Assembly: GCA_965231215.1 (NCBI GenBank)
Contig: OZ246423.1
Location: forward strand, 512,001-576,000
DNA from: Candidatus Altimarinota bacterium
GTDB lineage: Bacteria > Patescibacteriota > Gracilibacteria > UBA4473
Direction: 5' to 3'
DNA length: 64,000 nucleotides
The position numbers and the translations under genes are program-made. The notes beneath the pieces were generated by a model, which saw only the letters and a list, made by a program, of their open reading frames with translations, had not been told where the DNA came from and did no database searches. Positions 32,911 through 38,853 of the stretch are shown in pieces (position 1 is the first letter of the stretch; every line of letters begins with the position of its first letter).

Positions 32911-34082
32911 AAATACTAGCGCTAGCGGCTACCAACAACAAAAAATCAATTAATAAAAAATTGTTAAAGTATGCCGTAAGCCTCTTTACGGGAAAACATG
33001 AAATAAAAATAATAGACTTAAATGACTATGAAATGCCCCTATTTTCACCAGAAAGAGCTAGCAAAGAACTCCCAAAACCGGCTCAAAAATTTGCTGAACT
33101 CACCCAGTGGGCAGACTTTGTCATGATAAGCTTTGCCGAATACAACGGATCATATACTCCGGTATTTAAAAATCTTTTAGACTGGGCCTCCATCACCAAG
33201 CAAGAATACTGGGGAGGAAAAGATTTATTTTTGATGGCTACATCCCCGGGGGGCCGCGGGGCTCAAAATGTACTGAATGAAGCCAAAGATTTCTTTCCTT
33301 TTATGGGCGCTAATATTGTTGGAACTTTTTCACTCCCTCAATTTGAACAGTTTTTCCAAAATGAGCATATCACCAATGAGAAATTTGATATTCAATTAAA
33401 ACATCAAATAAGGGCTATTGAAAACCCCGTTCAGCACAAAGCCGATTGGGTTGAAAAGCTATTAGAATCCTTAAATTCTGTATGGATCGTTTTAGGCTAC
33501 GGACTATTCTTGTTTATCTCTATTAATGGTCTTCTAGGGGGTCGGTGGTTTGAAATCTCCAGCCATAATATCTTTTGGATCATAGCGATGTTTGCGGCTA
33601 CTTTTACTCTGACGATAAGACCTATTTATGACCTTCTACCCAAATCAAAACGGATAGAATCTATGTTAAAATGGCGCAAAGGAATAGGATTAATTTCTAG
33701 TGGAATTGTCGTTGGATTTTGGATTAGTAGAAACATAGATTTAGATAATCCAGCATGGATTATAAACTATTTTTCGTATGCAAAATGGTCCCCTTCACTC
33801 GAAAATATCTTAGAAAGAATCACCGAAATAACTGCTTGGATATTGTTTTTAATTTCCAATAAATGGCTATCGGTTCATCTAAACACTCTTTGGAAACATC
33901 TACAAAAACTGGCTTATGTTTATTTCTTATCGGCCGCACTCTTGCTAACAGCAGTTCATCAAAAGCCGTACGGAGCTATGTGTTTACTTTTCTTTTTTAT
34001 CGTCTACCAACTCTGGATTTATGAACGCCTAAACCGTGATCTAAAAAGCACAAGTGCTAACCGGCATAGTCAAGCAAGTTAA
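32907..34082 (+). CDS. NAD(P)H-dependent FMN reductase fused to an MsrQ/ferric-reductase-like TM domain
   Basis: N-terminal AEYNGSY..FKNLLDW, TSPGGRG; C-terminal IRP..WRKGIG...ISN..W..LQKLAY. Confidence 0.8.
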   Translation: MKILALAATNNKKSINKKLLKYAVSLFTGKHEIKIIDLNDYEMPLFSPERASKELPKPAQKFAELTQWADFVMISFAEYNGSYTPVFKNLLDWASITKQEYWGGKDLFLMATSPGGRGAQNVLNEAKDFFPFMGANIVGTFSLPQFEQFFQNEHITNEKFDIQLKHQIRAIENPVQHKADWVEKLLESLNSVWIVLGYGLFLFISINGLLGGRWFEISSHNIFWIIAMFAATFTLTIRPIYDLLPKSKRIESMLKWRKGIGLISSGIVVGFWISRNIDLDNPAWIINYFSYAKWSPSLENILERITEITAWILFLISNKWLSVHLNTLWKHLQKLAYVYFLSAALLLTAVHQKPYGAMCLLFFFIVYQLWIYERLNRDLKSTSANRHSQAS

Positions 34083-35254: not shown

Positions 35255-35370
35255 GGCTTCTTGGTATCTATTTATTTGGAGGGGCTTGTGTGGCAGGACT
35301 GCCTGGCCTTTGTTCGAAAGTTTTATCAAGAAGCTAATAATAGCTTTTTGATTAAGCTCATACGCACTAT

Positions 35371-35883
35371 TTAGCGCCAGGCAATTGACGCTTTAGTGTC
35401 TGGGTTCGTAAGCTCCCCTTTCGAAAGATCTACTGACTCTAAACAGAGAGCCTTGATTTCTTCTTCTGCATCATCAATAAATCCACCTTGATCATCTATA
35501 ATCCCATAATCAATTAGAATTTGCTCATACCCAGCCCAGCTATCACGATCATTTTCAAGGTCTAGCGTTGCTGCTAGAACAAAGATTGCATCAGCTACGC
35601 CTGGGCGCGCCGCTTTCTCAAGCATGTAAACAAATCTCCCGCGGACCGAATCTTGCAAAACAATCTCTGTCGCCCTTTTTGCGGCATCAGCTTCTTTAAT
35701 GGCTTCAGCTGCTGCAGCCTCTACAATTTCTCGCGCACCATCAACTCCAAACATAATCGCTTCAGCATCTTCTTTTACTAGCACATCAGGCTGTGTGCAA
35801 AGCTGCTGCAAGGCTACTACCTGCCCTTTAGTCATTGATGTAGCAACAAAGCACAATAGGGCTTTATTAACTCCTGCATCCAT
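35371..35883 (-). CDS. Hypothetical protein (island cargo)
   Basis: 170-aa Ala/acidic-rich ORF, no family recognised. Confidence 0.55.
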   Translation of the reverse strand: MDAGVNKALLCFVATSMTKGQVVALQQLCTQPDVLVKEDAEAIMFGVDGAREIVEAAAAEAIKEADAAKRATEIVLQDSVRGRFVYMLEKAARPGVADAIFVLAATLDLENDRDSWAGYEQILIDYGIIDDQGGFIDDAEEEIKALCLESVDLSKGELTNPDTKASIAWR

Positions 35884-35927
35884 TAATGTTTTAAGAGTAG
35901 GAATATCTAACTCACCTTTTTCAGCGC

Positions 35928-36350
35928 CTAGCTTTTTTGAATTTCAAATTTAATAACTTTCGCGGCTTCGATGGCCTCAGCTGTCTGTTCTTCATTAGCC
36001 ACCTGATATACCTCTAAAATTTTTGATAAAGCCTCTCTATATTGTGCAATATCGTCAGCAAAAACTGCCTGTAGACTATCTTCTTCAACCTCTCTCTCAA
36101 ATAAATCAAGGAGCTCAAGCAACAGTCGGATAAGCTCTCCCAACTTTTCTTTATCTTTTCCCATAGAAAAAACCTTAGCACTTCCGTCCATCAATCCTGC
36201 ACTTGGCCGTCCGTATTCAAACTGAATGCGACACCCCGCGGCTTTAAAACGAAGTTGCAAGGCCATAAAGTCTTCAAATAAATCATCCGAAACCTCAACA
36301 GCTAAGCCATTAACGTCCAAACTTTTACGAATTGAATCATATTTTGACAT
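35928..36350 (-). CDS. Hypothetical protein (island cargo)
   Basis: 140-aa ORF co-oriented with the previous gene. Confidence 0.55.
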   Translation of the reverse strand: MSKYDSIRKSLDVNGLAVEVSDDLFEDFMALQLRFKAAGCRIQFEYGRPSAGLMDGSAKVFSMGKDKEKLGELIRLLLELLDLFEREVEEDSLQAVFADDIAQYREALSKILEVYQVANEEQTAEAIEAAKVIKFEIQKS

Positions 36351-36413
36351 ATTTAAAATATATTTATTATTCAGAATTTGGGATATAAAGCCAGACGCAC
36401 CAAAAGATGGAAT

Positions 36414-36508
36414 AAAGAGTCGAACCGCTCAATTGTCCCCTGTAGTACGGCTTAAAGGGGACTTAAAAAGTGCTAAATGCAACGTGGCAGGCGCTGAAGG
36501 AATCGAAC
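36414..36508 (+). mobile_element. Recombinase C-terminal relic plus att site (tRNA-Trp 3' duplicate), copy 1
   Basis: 36485-36508 is identical over 24 bp to 38617-38640; the preceding ~65 bp is homologous to 38353-38416. Confidence 0.75.
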
Positions 36509-36585
36509 TTTATTTCTTAATTTAAAATTCGCTTAAAAATATTGTAAGCCAATCAGTTGAGTATTGGTTTTTAAATTAATACACT

Positions 36586-36894
36586 CTATTTCATCTGGGT
36601 CCCCAGCTTCAATAGGGCAGGTTTAAGCTCAAGCGCCGTCTTTCCCAGCCTTGTTAAAGTGTATTCCACCCTTGGAGGAACCTGCTGGTAATCCTTTCGC
36701 GTAATAAGTTCGTATTTTTGCAATAAGCGCAGTTTTTCTATCAGTATTTTTTCGGAAACATCAGGGATACGCTTTTTAATTTCACCATAACGCCTCGTTT
36801 TTTCTAGTTGCAAAAGAATCAGGAACGTCCATTTACTACCTAGAACTTTAAAAGCCTTACGAATCGGACAGCCACTAACATCAAATGATTTCAT
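36586..36894 (-). CDS. HxlR-family transcriptional regulator
   Basis: CPI...LGSKW, RYGEIK, YQQVPPRVEYTLT.LG. Confidence 0.92.
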   Translation of the reverse strand: MKSFDVSGCPIRKAFKVLGSKWTFLILLQLEKTRRYGEIKKRIPDVSEKILIEKLRLLQKYELITRKDYQQVPPRVEYTLTRLGKTALELKPALLKLGTQMK

Positions 36895-36909
36895 TTGAAA
36901 ATAAAATTA

Positions 36910-36959
36910 TACTTACAAAAAAGTAGGTACTTGACCATAAGTTAGCTTTGCAATACACT
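36910..36959 (+). promoter_or_regulatory. HxlR-type operator palindrome and adjacent sigma70 promoter
   Basis: TACTTAC-N6-GTAGGTA, then TTGACC-N17-TACACT. Confidence 0.7.
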
Positions 36960-36990
36960 TTCGTCAAATCTATTTTTTTCTAAGAAAATC

Positions 36991-37668
36991 ATGAACAACC
37001 ACCTACCAAAAAGTAAAATCAGGCTATGCCTTGTCACCTTCGCTATCATAGTGGGAATAGTTGGGATTCTTCATGGGAGCGCTGAATTACTGAAGGGATC
37101 CGCTTTGATAGAGAGTCACTCAGTAGAGGCACTACCAGAAAACTGGCCTAATCCTGGATTTTATAGCATGACGAAGGGAAGCCCTGTTTTTTCGGTGCTG
37201 ACAAATATTCCTCATTATGTGCTCGGTCTTTTGGCTATTTCAGTTTCTATTGCTTTAATTGCTTTCGCCGCGACTTTGATGAGAAGATCCAAATTAGGAA
37301 CCAGCTTGTTACTTTTTGCTTTGTTGAGTATCGGGATATTTTTATTTGGGGCCGGTAGAGGCACGCCGGTAGCCATAAGCCTTCCAATAATAATTGTGGG
37401 ACTCCTGTCTATCATGAAAAAAACCAAAAAAGAACGAAGCGAAACCGGTAAAAAAATGATCTTGTCTGCTTTTAATTTTTTCTATGGATTACATATTTTT
37501 AGCTGGGTTTTATTTTTCCCTATTTTGTTTGTGTTTAGTTTTTATGCTGAAATATCACAACCGTTATTCTTATTCGCGTTTCTCAGCATGCCTGTGGCAA
37601 ATTTAGGGGCGTTAATATTTGGGTTTATGTATGACAAAACAATACATCATGAAATTAAATCTATTTAA
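36991..37668 (+). CDS. Hypothetical polytopic membrane protein
   Basis: About six hydrophobic segments; divergent from hxlR. Confidence 0.7.
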   Translation: MNNHLPKSKIRLCLVTFAIIVGIVGILHGSAELLKGSALIESHSVEALPENWPNPGFYSMTKGSPVFSVLTNIPHYVLGLLAISVSIALIAFAATLMRRSKLGTSLLLFALLSIGIFLFGAGRGTPVAISLPIIIVGLLSIMKKTKKERSETGKKMILSAFNFFYGLHIFSWVLFFPILFVFSFYAEISQPLFLFAFLSMPVANLGALIFGFMYDKTIHHEIKSI

Positions 37669-38092
37669 AAATTCTTTAATTCCCGCCTGGGTCAATGTCT
37701 TGTTGGTGGTGCTGATAGTGTTTATGGTGGTACAAGGATACGCGTTCTACCTTGATCCTCAATTTCTTGTTGATGCCGGAATAACCACTGACGGGGCACC
37801 AAATCTTAATATTATCTACACCACCGCCGGAAGACTAATGGCTATGGCAGCGGCGTTTATTTTTGTTCTCTACACACAAAACCCGCAGCAGTATTTAGTG
37901 GTACTGCTGCTAAGCATATTTAAAGATACACAGCAAGCGTTTATTGACCCGTTGTTTCCTTATGCCAACGCTGCCTCAGCAGAAGTTGATTTTGGAATGC
38001 ATTTTGCAATCGTTGTTTTGGAGATTTGGGCTTTTATAGTGGTGTATAGAGTGGCAAAACAGAAGGGTCAAAAAACCTTGTACAGTCTATGA
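37649..38092 (+). CDS. Hypothetical four-TM membrane protein
   Basis: Four hydrophobic segments; overlaps the upstream gene. Confidence 0.7.
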   Translation: MKLNLFKNSLIPAWVNVLLVVLIVFMVVQGYAFYLDPQFLVDAGITTDGAPNLNIIYTTAGRLMAMAAAFIFVLYTQNPQQYLVVLLLSIFKDTQQAFIDPLFPYANAASAEVDFGMHFAIVVLEIWAFIVVYRVAKQKGQKTLYSL

Positions 38093-38435
38093 AGCTATCC
38101 ACTAAAGACCCTGAGCTTTTTAAAGGCTTTCAAACAGAGTACAAAGAAGTTAATAGAAAGATAAAAATTAGAGAGTCTCAAAGAGATGAAAAAAGGTTAA
38201 CAGAAGACGATATTATAAGGGTTACTGAAAAAACCCTGTATTTTGTCGAACACCTGGACGAATTGGTCTTCAGTACTACCAGCAGCAGAGAAATAGCACA
38301 CTTTTGGGAGCTCATTTTTGAAGAGACCCCAACACTCGAACAACTCAAAATTCGAACCGCCCAATTACCGCCTGTGGTAAGGCTTAAGGGGGAACTTAAA
38401 AGTTCAAAATGCAATGTGGCAGGCGCTGAAGGAAT
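38089..38435 (+). pseudogene. Probable C-terminal remnant of a large serine recombinase reading into att copy 2
   Basis: Coiled coil then EHLDEL...LIFEETPT..RTAQL, running into TGGCAGGCGCTGAAGGAAT (38417-38435); no catalytic domain; family call from memory. Confidence 0.55.
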
Positions 38436-38616
38436 ACTCCGTCCTAGATTTATCCTGAATTTATTTCAGGACTTCGTGACGTCGTCGCACAAAAAACAAA
38501 TGCCTACGGCGCTTGTTTTTGTGTTTGCTCCTCGTATCGAACCCAGCACATATGCGGGTCCTCAAACACTAACTATTTTAAAACCCAGACAGCCTAAGGG
38601 CTGACTGATTTTTAAA
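38436..38616 (-). repeat. tRNA-linked palindromic element
   Basis: Several hairpins lying between two halves of a duplicated tRNA-Trp T-arm, plus a terminator-like hairpin. Confidence 0.6.
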
Positions 38617-38690
38617 TGGCAGGCGCTGAAGGAATCGAACCCTCGACCTCGGTTTTGGAGACCGATGTTATACCACTTAACTAAGCGCCT
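38617..38690 (-). tRNA. tRNA-Trp(CCA)
   Basis: AGGCGCT...TCGGT-CTCCAAA-ACCGA...AGCGCCT GCCA. Confidence 0.95.
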
Positions 38691-38853
38691 TTGTCATTGG
38701 CAGCTAGGTAATTTCGTAAAATTAAATTTTTACTTCAGTCCTTCGCTACCTTCTCCATACCTTACAAAAGCATACTTTTTTTGCCGCTTTTATTGGGTAA
38801 AAATAGAGAGCACGGGTGATCCTAATATTTACTATAAAAAAATCAATACCCCG

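Follow-up and report, generated by a model that had tools for sequence, protein, structure and literature searches.

We analyzed a window of 64,000 nt, i.e., the whole stretch of DNA under study, which belongs to a 1.33-Mb genome (G000). It carries a tRNA-Trp(cca) gene that was found by ARAGORN on the window and by Rfam (67.2 bits). This is the single tRNA-Trp gene among 35 tRNAs identified by ARAGORN in the whole genome, and Rfam returned no other match between positions 34000 and 40000. The 3′-terminal 19 nt of the gene (TGGCAGGCGCTGAAGGAAT on the plus strand) are present in the window in exactly three copies, at 36485, 38417 and 38617, compared with none expected, and were absent from 100 of 100 shuffled sequences. 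The copies are direct repeats in the same orientation, spaced 1932 and 200 nt apart. The two copies outside the gene, fragments 1 and 2, reproduce the tRNA end perfectly and stop inside the T-loop. Exact matching thus confirmed the original prediction that the tRNA-Trp 3′ end recurs at 36485–36508 (24 bp) and 38417–38435 (19 bp). The following features were assigned:

35291–35318, plus strand: outer (far) junction, consisting of TGGCAGG, a 15-nt spacer and TTCGAA; element-side (P′-type) half-site joined to the chromosomal flank
35371–36350, minus strand: unit 1 cargo, a pair of ORFs (170 and 140 aa) arranged head to tail, each in its own frame
36415–36484, plus strand: tail 1, final ~23 codons of a gene for a large serine recombinase (LSR), catalytic part missing
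36485–36508, plus strand: fragment 1, 24 nt equal to the tRNA-Trp 3′ end, with tRNA-type spacing
36509–36585, plus strand: distal arm of unit 2; its joint TCGAAC/TTTATTTC is identical in the congener G004
36586–36894, minus strand: HxlR-family transcription regulator of unit 2, 102 aa (Pfam HxlR, E 8.5e-23)
36991–37668, plus strand: ORF for a membrane protein of unit 2, 225 aa
37619–38092, plus strand: ORF for a membrane protein of unit 2, at most 157 aa (start codon uncertain)
38089–38416, plus strand: tail 2, C-terminal ~109 codons of an LSR gene
38417–38435, plus strand: fragment 2, 19 nt equal to the tRNA-Trp 3′ end
38436–38616, plus strand: unit 3, a 181-nt remnant between fragment 2 and the live tRNA-Trp gene
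38617–38690, minus strand: tRNA-Trp(cca), the probable integration target

The array units comprise one to three genes each, in both orientations, with tRNA-like joints as borders. The sequence TGGCAGG-N15-TTCGAA of the outer junction occurs once on both strands of the genome, at 35291, and in none of 20 shuffles. Cargo differs from unit to unit, as had been proposed. Unit 1 has two ORFs on the minus strand (35371–35883 and 35928–36350), which could be one frameshifted gene or two genes; they had no match in Pfam above cut-off or in PHROGs, and the 140-aa ORF was found in none of 42 other genomes of the family. Unit 2 combines the HxlR regulator with the two membrane proteins. The sole Pfam match of the 225-aa protein is a weak one to DUF7670, below cut-off, and the protein encoded at 37619–38092 matched no family in Pfam or PHROGs; searches with the window cargo against PHROGs gave no match at all. 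Unit 3 contains a 70-nt motif (38475–38543) that recurs at other tRNAs, i.e., in genome G003 (some 70 nt downstream of both tRNA-Asn and tRNA-Met), in genome G002 and at the far end of a tRNA-Lys element in the window's own genome.

Recombinase tails and their full-length relatives

The 116-aa frame at 38089–38436, made up of tail 2 and fragment 2, is the C-terminal tail of LSRs of 565–609 aa. Tail 2 aligned to residues 448–558 of a 569-aa ORF in genome G005 (E 2.9e-22), which has Resolvase, Recombinase and Zn_ribbon_recom domains, and a 564-aa ORF in genome G016 likewise aligned to the tail. In full-length relatives, a coiled-coil region and a C-terminal segment come after the Resolvase, Recombinase and zinc-ribbon domains; tail 2 has lost the catalytic, recombinase and zinc-ribbon parts. 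Compared with a profile of 59 recombinase tails, tail 2 scored E 7.3e-42 and the tail 1 ORF, in which about 23–36 homologous codons are left, E 1.3e-6 (E 4.9e-11 in a protein search). Longer homologues were missed by a word-indexed search and recovered by exhaustive search of representatives and by genome searches. Among 61 representatives matched by the tail, 16 are 436–609 aa long, with the tail mapping to their C-termini, and 42 are shorter than 300 aa, many short tail-only ORFs being present in public data. The tail homologues are hence recombinases, in line with the original prediction.

None of the ORFs of 35291–38616 matched Resolvase or Recombinase, and the array therefore contains remnants rather than working members of the family. 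The sole PF00239 matches in G000 lie outside the array (C1:813316–813792 and C1:345019–345456). This genome encodes just two tails of the LSR family and no full-length member, so the array is unable to move by itself. A full-length Trp-specific LSR was not found in the window's genus either; the recombinases that would have built the array are hence inferred from relatives, which are 38–46% identical to the window in the tail.

In a search with an alignment of six proteins, the LSR 3′ end overlapped a convergent tRNA gene by 39–114 nt at 10 of 16 loci, the tRNAs being tRNA-Glu, Trp, Tyr and Arg. A second sample of 30 loci from 43 genomes of the same family gave overlap with a convergent tRNA at 15 of 25 assessable LSR loci; 14 of these overlaps span 15–66 nt, and one LSR reads through the whole tRNA. 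Most assessable long LSRs in the family end inside a tRNA gene, and the proposed location of att inside the recombinase 3′ end thus extends across the family. With att in its last codons, the LSR gene of an integrated element is oriented toward the tRNA and extends in reverse into the acceptor and T arm of the latter, which would yield a VAGAEGI(EP) ending. Both tail frames of the window continue into the tRNA-derived bases with VAGAEGI.

Strand exchange and half-site geometry

Only one element was delimited on both sides. In G005, a 6.07-kb insertion including the recombinase lies exactly between the tRNA-Glu 3′ end and the downstream flank, and in genome G049 the same flank is joined directly to tRNA-Glu, i.e., the site is empty. 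The bases common to all joints of this pair are TGG(Y)AG only. Judged from these sequences, strand exchange is located within the final few bases of the tRNA gene, and the recombinase receives a different C-terminus on integration. At the far junction of G005, a 41-codon ending continues in the same codon phase; eight longer family members have matching extreme C-termini (best E 0.009). Neither the G005 element nor the tRNA-Lys element of G000 contained an inverted repeat of at least 30 nt. The element in G016 runs off its contig. For six other intact elements (L044–L049), a search for the second att end within 12–20 kb gave only matches of 9–11 nt, which is chance level. The sequence L019:3002–3226, considered as a second tail remnant, was wrongly assigned; its first part is chromosomal flank according to the empty site in G049.

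A T-loop-like motif, [CG]GAA[CA], is found at +20 from TGG in both live tRNAs, tRNA-Trp and tRNA-Glu, and at +25 in three of three element-side junctions (35291 in the window and the left junctions of G004 and G005), i.e., 5 bp further out. According to Rutherford et al. 2013 (PMC3783163), the zinc-ribbon-domain motif lies 5 bp nearer the center in attB than in attP. The 5-bp half-site shift corresponds to this published attP/attB geometry of serine integrases.

The stretch shared with tRNA-Trp is 7 nt long at 35291 compared with 19–24 nt at the inner fragments. By analogy with G005, the crossover in the Trp elements probably falls into a core of 7 nt, TGGCAGG, with which the tRNA gene ends. 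Given such an exchange, the 19–24-nt fragments would be better read as relics of old element–tRNA joints than as att core. The window units also have in-frame continuations, of 15 codons at 35291 and of 56 codons after fragment 2, and neither had detectable similarity to the C-terminal endings of long-form recombinases. We considered the continuation in unit 3 as a preserved alternative C-terminus and dropped this candidate, as it had no significant similarity to the long-form extensions.

Origin of the array

We consider it likely that 35291–38616 is a stack of three decayed integrative elements, inserted serially at the tRNA-Trp 3′ end by LSRs. The order of insertion and loss events is one that we infer: each newcomer would have moved the previous element, recombinase tail included, further from the tRNA, and deletions would then have stripped the catalytic parts. 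Left over would be tail 1 with one or two unknown genes, tail 2 with hxlR and two membrane genes, and the 181-nt stub. The end of a decaying element beside an essential tRNA would be the last part to be lost. The original prediction of serial integration of related LSR elements with loss of their catalytic parts was hence largely right. It had also compared the locus with a cassette array for gene capture, which is no more than an analogy: an integron integrase is absent, and the units are islands in decay, not cassettes.

Some points speak against serial insertion by LSRs. A crossover at TGGCAGG should leave P′-type arms, but fragments 1 and 2 depart from this geometry, having tRNA-type spacing or being truncated. 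Such spacing would have to come from gene conversion or from another kind of event, one with breakage in the T-loop. Moreover, to our knowledge LSRs are normally not expected to target an occupied attR, and serial insertion at one tRNA therefore needs relaxed site choice or another route. The array could alternatively consist of classical tRNA-restoring islands, where the crossover is in the T-loop, each newcomer brings its own last 19–24 nt of tRNA-Trp, in the manner of tyrosine-integrase islands, and the fragments are the displaced original ends, a reading that differs from the LSR stack only in place and manner of strand exchange. The fragments would suit it well, as perfect copies with tRNA-type spacing that end inside the T-loop, and the T arm is a natural inverted repeat. 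The same layout is seen at tRNA-Glu in G005 and G049 (a copy of 19–20 nt, then 100–180 nt, then the live tRNA), and G000 encodes two tyrosine recombinases (PF00589) elsewhere, at C1:883210–883737 and C1:818248–818751. However, no array ORF matched Phage_integrase, i.e., there is no tyrosine recombinase among them, and the G005/G049 pair locates the exchange of one member of the family at TGG(Y)AG rather than in the T-loop. Furthermore, the junctions at 35291 and on the left in G004 are not tRNA ends, but have the +5 P′-type architecture with unrelated spacers. We therefore regard tRNA-restoring islands as an unlikely origin.

The stack of LSR elements is also consistent with the coding signature of the tails. 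Fragments 1 and 2 form the ends of an 89-nt direct repeat (36415–36503 and 38347–38435, 83% identical). As predicted originally, a homologous reading frame runs in frame into each copy, and of the 21 codons ahead of the fragments (36421–36483 and 38353–38415), 10 differ, 7 of them synonymously. Nucleotide differences amount to 4, 0 and 9 at the first, second and third codon positions, respectively (pS 0.58, pN 0.084, dN/dS about 0.08). When 13 substitutions were placed randomly, three or fewer amino-acid changes resulted in a fraction of 0.0002 of 20,000 trials. Each of the other five frames has stops in at least one copy. These values bear out the earlier view of two coding alleles rather than a local duplication.

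The tails might also be kept as small stand-alone proteins, e.g., as the domesticated DNA-binding end of a recombinase. With its ATG, tail 2 forms an open frame of 171 aa, its DNA is 97.8% identical to G004, and short tail-only ORFs abound in public data. The G004 copy, on the other hand, is interrupted by TAA after codon 77 and frameshifted further on by a 1-nt deletion, tail 1 is eroded to its few remaining homologous codons, and the position beside an essential tRNA is a simpler reason for retention, which makes domesticated tails very improbable. Local duplication in tandem of the tRNA 3′ end and the adjoining downstream sequence, with subsequent drift and no mobile elements, would give direct repeats of the observed orientation and spacing, but can practically be dismissed, as the 63-nt stretches differ at 13 positions under purifying selection on the protein (p about 0.0002), the cargo between the repeats is unrelated and what is repeated is a recombinase-family tail.

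Relation to known systems and exchange between species

Integration into tRNA genes has been treated as a hallmark of tyrosine integrases. In the family described here, serine-integrase genes have ends that run backwards into a tRNA, a habit that textbooks assign to another enzyme family. Large serine recombinases are encoded in 34 of 43 family genomes (Peribacteria, roughly 1 Mb), with up to 13 in each. If the enzymes work as their sequences suggest, they would be the chief means by which a lineage of tiny genomes gains genes, and would provide natural serine integrases with conserved, ubiquitous targets, i.e., tRNA ends. They would also offer a test of whether the change of C-terminus on integration controls direction; the swap could be a built-in direction switch across the family. 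The window itself illustrates the probable long-term fate of such elements, which stack, lose their enzyme and leave accessory genes behind. We found no published description of an LSR family overlapping tRNA genes, and large catalogues of LSRs and islands may already list such integrases.

CIMEs, known from accretion and mobilization of the ICESt1/ICESt3 type, are att-bounded units without recombination genes, in tandem with other elements. The window units resemble them, being bounded by att-like sequences, arranged in tandem and devoid of recombination genes, and units 2 and 3 are shared far above core identity; mobilization in trans would be a possibility here. In contrast to an integron cassette array, no IntI-type tyrosine recombinase lies in or beside the array, and the units hold as many as three genes, on either strand. 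Mx8 Int belongs to the tyrosine recombinases, the enzymes considered here to the serine recombinases, with the swapped C-terminus seen for the relative in G005. The Myxococcus phage Mx8 has its att inside the integrase coding sequence, so that integration gives the gene a new 3′ end, according to a review (PMC6070905), and G005 is alike in having att within the gene and a 41-codon ending in phase at the far end.

The full-length relatives share their domain order with phage-type large serine integrases (Listeria A118/LI, Bxb1, phiC31, SPbeta SprA) and probably, in the one delimited element, the very short common core. As reported for LI integrase (PMC3783163), an outer half-site motif is 5 bp further from the center in the element than in the chromosome. 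Unlike these phage enzymes, they are directed at a tRNA 3′ end, and the P arm of att is supplied by the final codons of the recombinase gene itself. Serine-recombinase elements integrate within genes and disrupt them, as stated in a review on integrative mobilizable elements (PMC5704250). For tyrosine-integrase islands of the Islander/TIGER type, stacking of several at one tRNA has been described (PMC4383910). The layout is similar here, with a tRNA gene followed by partial 3′-end copies and foreign genes between them; in contrast to those islands, there is no tyrosine integrase in the array, and serine-family remnants face and overlap the tRNA.

Among four congeners, units 2 and 3 are present in G004 only, next to a different flank with adjoining TetR and SDR genes. 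Together with the restricted occurrence of the unit 1 cargo, this shows a variable locus rather than an invariant, syntenic one, as the original prediction demanded. The last 1.7 kb of the block adjoining tRNA-Trp, which is without a recombinase, is 97–100% identical to G004, a second species, while the core genomes of the two species are 67–76% identical. By segment, identity is 86% for 36485–36585, 87.1% for hxlR, 98.5% for the gene of the 225-aa membrane protein, 100% for 37669–38092 and 99% for unit 3. These values indicate a recent exchange of units 2 and 3 between the two species, i.e., at least one stub-plus-cargo block has recently become common to both. As to the route of passage, the block could as well have come to be shared by homologous recombination at the identical tRNA as by mobilization in trans. 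Tentatively, the tails may be working half-sites, by which decayed units would stay recognizable to incoming integrases of the family and be accreted, excised and carried to another host. If so, tRNA-Trp would be a site of serine-integrase-driven capture and exchange among co-resident ultra-small bacteria, which would account for 97–100% identity over 1.7 kb between species that have a core identity of about 70% and co-occur in one run.

In public data, the locus was present in three runs of one study, as contigs only. No circular or empty-site form was found in the contigs of these runs, and contigs cannot show rare forms. A joint from 36460 to 38394 (depth 280, shorter side 22 nt), considered as a deletion, is a G004-type mosaic tail on G000 sequence. 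Depth was roughly doubled over 36800–38650, as units 2 and 3 are also carried by a G004-like genome in that run.

Recombinase tails and partial tRNA copies beside tRNA-Trp

The array adjoins the single tRNA-Trp gene found in the whole complete genome of the window (G000, 1.326 Mb). Its parts, together with an element elsewhere in this genome, are as follows.

Features of the array and of the tRNA-Lys element (window coordinates unless a contig or locus is named)
38617–38690, minus strand: tRNA-Trp(cca), the putative integration target
35291–36484: unit 1, with a P'-type arm (element-side half-site), two minus-strand ORFs of no known family and tail 1
36485–38416: unit 2, with a 24-nt tRNA-type fragment, an arm shared with the same-genus relative G004, hxlR, two membrane-protein genes and tail 2
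38417–38616: unit 3, with a 19-nt tRNA-type fragment followed by 181 nt
38475–38543: 70-nt motif in unit 3, an A/T-rich hairpin plus the T-loop-like GGTTCGATACGAGG
C1:812156–821700 (L094:2156–11700), outside the window: tRNA-Lys element

The 3'-terminal 19 nt of tRNA-Trp occur three times on the plus strand of the window, at 36485, 38417 and 38617, and in none of 100 shuffles. As originally predicted, the exact match to the tRNA is 24 nt long for the copy at 36485 and 19 nt for that at 38417. Each arm of an 89-nt direct repeat (83% identical) ends in one of these inner copies. In the 21 codons preceding them our recount returned the predicted figures, i.e., 10 differ, 7 of them synonymously. 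The nucleotide differences are distributed 4/0/9 over the codon positions, leaving the second position invariant, and dN/dS is about 0.08. When 13 substitutions were placed at random, three or fewer amino-acid changes resulted in a fraction of 0.0002 of 20,000 trials, and each of the five alternative frames is interrupted by stops in one or both repeat copies. From this coding signature we conclude that both stretches diverged inside functional protein-coding genes, in line with the earlier reading of independently evolved coding alleles rather than a local duplication.

The 116-aa frame at 38089–38436, which contains tail 2, matched no Pfam family. Against 41 related genomes its matches lay in the last 100 residues of long open frames, i.e., of 576 aa in G005, 565 aa in G016 and 253 aa (truncated) in G017. 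Resolvase and Recombinase domains occur in the proteins of both G005 (569 aa) and G016 (564 aa), and that of G005 also has a recombinase zinc-ribbon domain. Searched exhaustively, 1.84 billion representative proteins yielded 61 matches; 16 were proteins of 436–609 aa matched at their C-terminus, and 42 were tail-only or partial ORFs shorter than 300 aa. The C-terminal match of 38089–38435 to full-length, domain-bearing proteins agrees with the prediction that the frames are 3' ends of large serine recombinase (LSR) genes. Loss of the catalytic part had also been proposed, and a protein search and a six-frame profile search built from 59 tails both found the two tails in G000 but no full-length member of their LSR family.

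Overlap of recombinase genes with tRNA 3' ends

In G005, G016 and G017 the recombinase frame is convergent with tRNA-Glu(ctc), tRNA-Arg(tct) and tRNA-Glu(ttc), respectively, and overlaps about 41 nt of the tRNA 3' end. We scanned more widely with a six-protein alignment, taking one genome per species. Of the 16 loci obtained, 10 overlapped a convergent tRNA (Glu, Trp, Tyr or Arg) by 39–114 nt, all from Peribacteria, Paceibacterota, Shapirobacteria or unclassified 'bacterium' records; the six loci with no tRNA came from Rhizobiaceae, Halocynthiibacter, Rhodobacter, SAR324, Niastella and Magnetococcales. Loci L033 and L037 are examples of full-length Trp-type recombinases situated at tRNA-Trp.

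Recombinase-domain matches occur in 34 of the 43 genomes of the window's family, which includes G005, and single genomes hold 10–13, the maximum being 13. LSR genes are very abundant given genome sizes of 0.7–2 Mb. We sampled 30 loci from the 43 genomes, and 25 were assessable as five reach a contig end. In 14 loci the recombinase gene shares 15–66 nt with the 3' end of a convergently oriented tRNA (Lys, Arg, Ala, Met, Val, Ile, Asn or Glu), and in one further locus the recombinase frame crosses an entire tRNA-Trp. Seven loci encode recombinases of a shorter class, about 430 aa long, and lack a tRNA. Two more (L066 and L082, about 514–525 aa) end in AGIEPAS..., resembling an antisense T arm, with no tRNA called there; these recombinases might target tmRNA or a degenerate tRNA. 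Recurrent C-terminal peptides, i.e., GIEP, GFEP, GLEP and others, correspond to the T arm in reverse reading. Overlap with a convergent tRNA gene, seen in 10 of 16 scanned and 15 of 25 assessable family loci, is hence a family trait, and the predicted location of att inside the recombinase 3' end agrees with it.

According to the Islander paper, no integrase of the serine family is known to use tRNA genes as targets (PMC4383910), and a review on IMEs describes serine-recombinase elements as having very short repeats and disrupting their target genes (PMC5704250). In the literature searched, we found no description of tRNA-targeting serine recombinases, for CPR bacteria or generally. The window contains the decayed end state of a tRNA-targeting, apparently undescribed branch of large serine integrases. 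The original prediction held in every particular of its description and largely in its interpretation; what the window adds is a defined outer joint, the geometry of attP and attB, and evidence of recent sharing of a recombinase-less unit.

Crossover position and half-site geometry

The only element delimited on both sides is that of G005, where the recombinase end joins tRNA-Glu at L019:9162. In G049, its sister genome, the corresponding left flank directly meets the same tRNA, without the 6.07 kb that include the recombinase. The three joints have only TGG(Y)AG in common, the complement of the last tRNA bases, which would place the crossover at the very end of the tRNA gene, with the tRNA not restored from element DNA. 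At the far joint of the element the codon phase of the recombinase is kept over 41 codons (AELSGLKWNTLVNELKRW...), which match eight longer proteins of the family at their extreme C-termini (best E 0.009); the excised element would thus encode a longer predicted recombinase. On integration, the enzyme's own ending would be exchanged for codons read from the tRNA. The closest precedent confirmed here is phage Mx8, described in a review, where attP lies inside int and integration makes a new 3' end (PMC6070905). A spare inverted attP was looked for in the G005 element and in the G000 tRNA-Lys element, and neither has an inverted repeat of at least 30 nt. On the chromosomal side in G005 (L019:2448–2965), a Phd/YefM antitoxin and ParE toxin pair directly adjoins an old tRNA-Glu fragment.

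With positions numbered from the first base of TGG, live tRNA-Trp and tRNA-Glu have the start of the T-loop motif [CG]GAA[CA] at +20, and all three element-side junctions have it at +25, i.e., window position 35291 and the left junctions of G004 unit 2 and of the G005 element. The spacers of these junctions show no sequence relationship. The 5-bp shift resembles that of the Listeria LI integrase, for which Rutherford et al. 2013 showed the zinc-ribbon-domain motif to lie 5 bp nearer the centre in attB than in attP (PMC3783163). This likeness supports the assignment of tRNA ends and element-side junctions as true serine-integrase attachment sites, and of 35291–35318 as the outer joint of the array. 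Genome-wide, the pattern TGGCAGG-N15-TTCGAA has a single occurrence, at 35291–35318.

Serial insertion of three LSR elements at the tRNA-Trp 3' end, with crossover in the core, would put P'-type arms after tails 1 and 2, contrary to what is seen. Each tail directly abuts perfect tRNA-type sequence, of 24 and 19 nt, respectively, as might result if a second kind of event, breaking the T-loop, had contributed to the array; we regard such an event as improbable. Alternatively, gene conversion over short tracts, with the tRNA or a nearby joint as donor, may have rewritten both arms after serial insertion. Tail 2 of G004 is interrupted by a TAA and a 1-nt deletion and is mosaic (L018:7269–7351): both of its ends resemble G000 tail 2, and 29 nt in the middle match G000 tail 1 exactly, which suggests gene conversion between recombinase tails. 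A comparable layout is found at tRNA-Glu of G005 and G049, where a 19–20-nt tRNA copy is followed by 100 nt and the live tRNA. For well-studied serine integrases, repeated use of an occupied site is not expected.

Exchange of units 2 and 3 and other recombinases

We compared the array with that of G004, also a complete genome. Core sequence is 67–76% identical over the syntenic 20 kb (tRNA-Ile 95%), whereas the block 36500–38694 is 96.6% identical, graded along its length.

Identity between G000 and G004 along the block
hxlR: 87%
membrane gene 1: 98.5%
membrane gene 2: 100%
tail 2: 97.8%
unit 3: 99%
tRNA-Trp: 100%

In G004 the place of unit 1, to the left of the block, is taken by TetR and SDR genes and a P'-type joint; its right flank is unlike that of G000. 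The two ORFs of unit 1 were found in none of the 42 other genomes of the family. The locus thus varies among relatives, and the units keep different cargo, as had been predicted, with two ORFs of no known family in unit 1 and hxlR plus two membrane-protein genes in unit 2. One public run holds both the G000 and G004 versions at similar depth (~310 and ~285). From the near-identical block in a diverged core and the presence of both versions in one run, we conclude that units 2 and 3, without a recombinase, were in all likelihood recently exchanged between two co-occurring species. Trans-mobilisation and homologous recombination through the tRNA are both compatible with the data. The tRNA-Trp shared by G000 and G004 is only about 76–77% identical to that of three other species of the genus (L085–L087), with differences scattered over all arms except the acceptor stem. 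In run X1, one contig of low depth (4.65) connects 38174 back to 35058 via 32 other letters, possibly the arrangement of a different organism or a rearranged form.

In G003, copies of the 70-nt motif of unit 3 (78–89% identity) lie downstream of tRNA-Asn and tRNA-Met, at a distance of about 70 nt, and the motif recurs at two more places in the related genomes G002 and G003. A 35-nt part lies at the far end of the G000 tRNA-Lys element (C1:821410–821444). The motif might represent an element end that is conserved.

G000 also encodes an intact recombinase from another clade (548 aa, with Resolvase, Recombinase and Zn ribbon domains), whose gene shares 64 nt with tRNA-Lys(ttt). At this site G000 has about 9.5 kb more than G004, and the insert also carries a tyrosine recombinase (C1:818248–818751). 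G004 has a second tRNA-Lys(ctt) at the place of insertion, a gene that ARAGORN did not find in G000. Elsewhere in G000 (C1:343786–346260, L052), a short-class 428-aa serine recombinase immediately follows a 380-aa ORF that, by sequence, looks like a phage terminase large subunit; the pair may be a prophage remnant.
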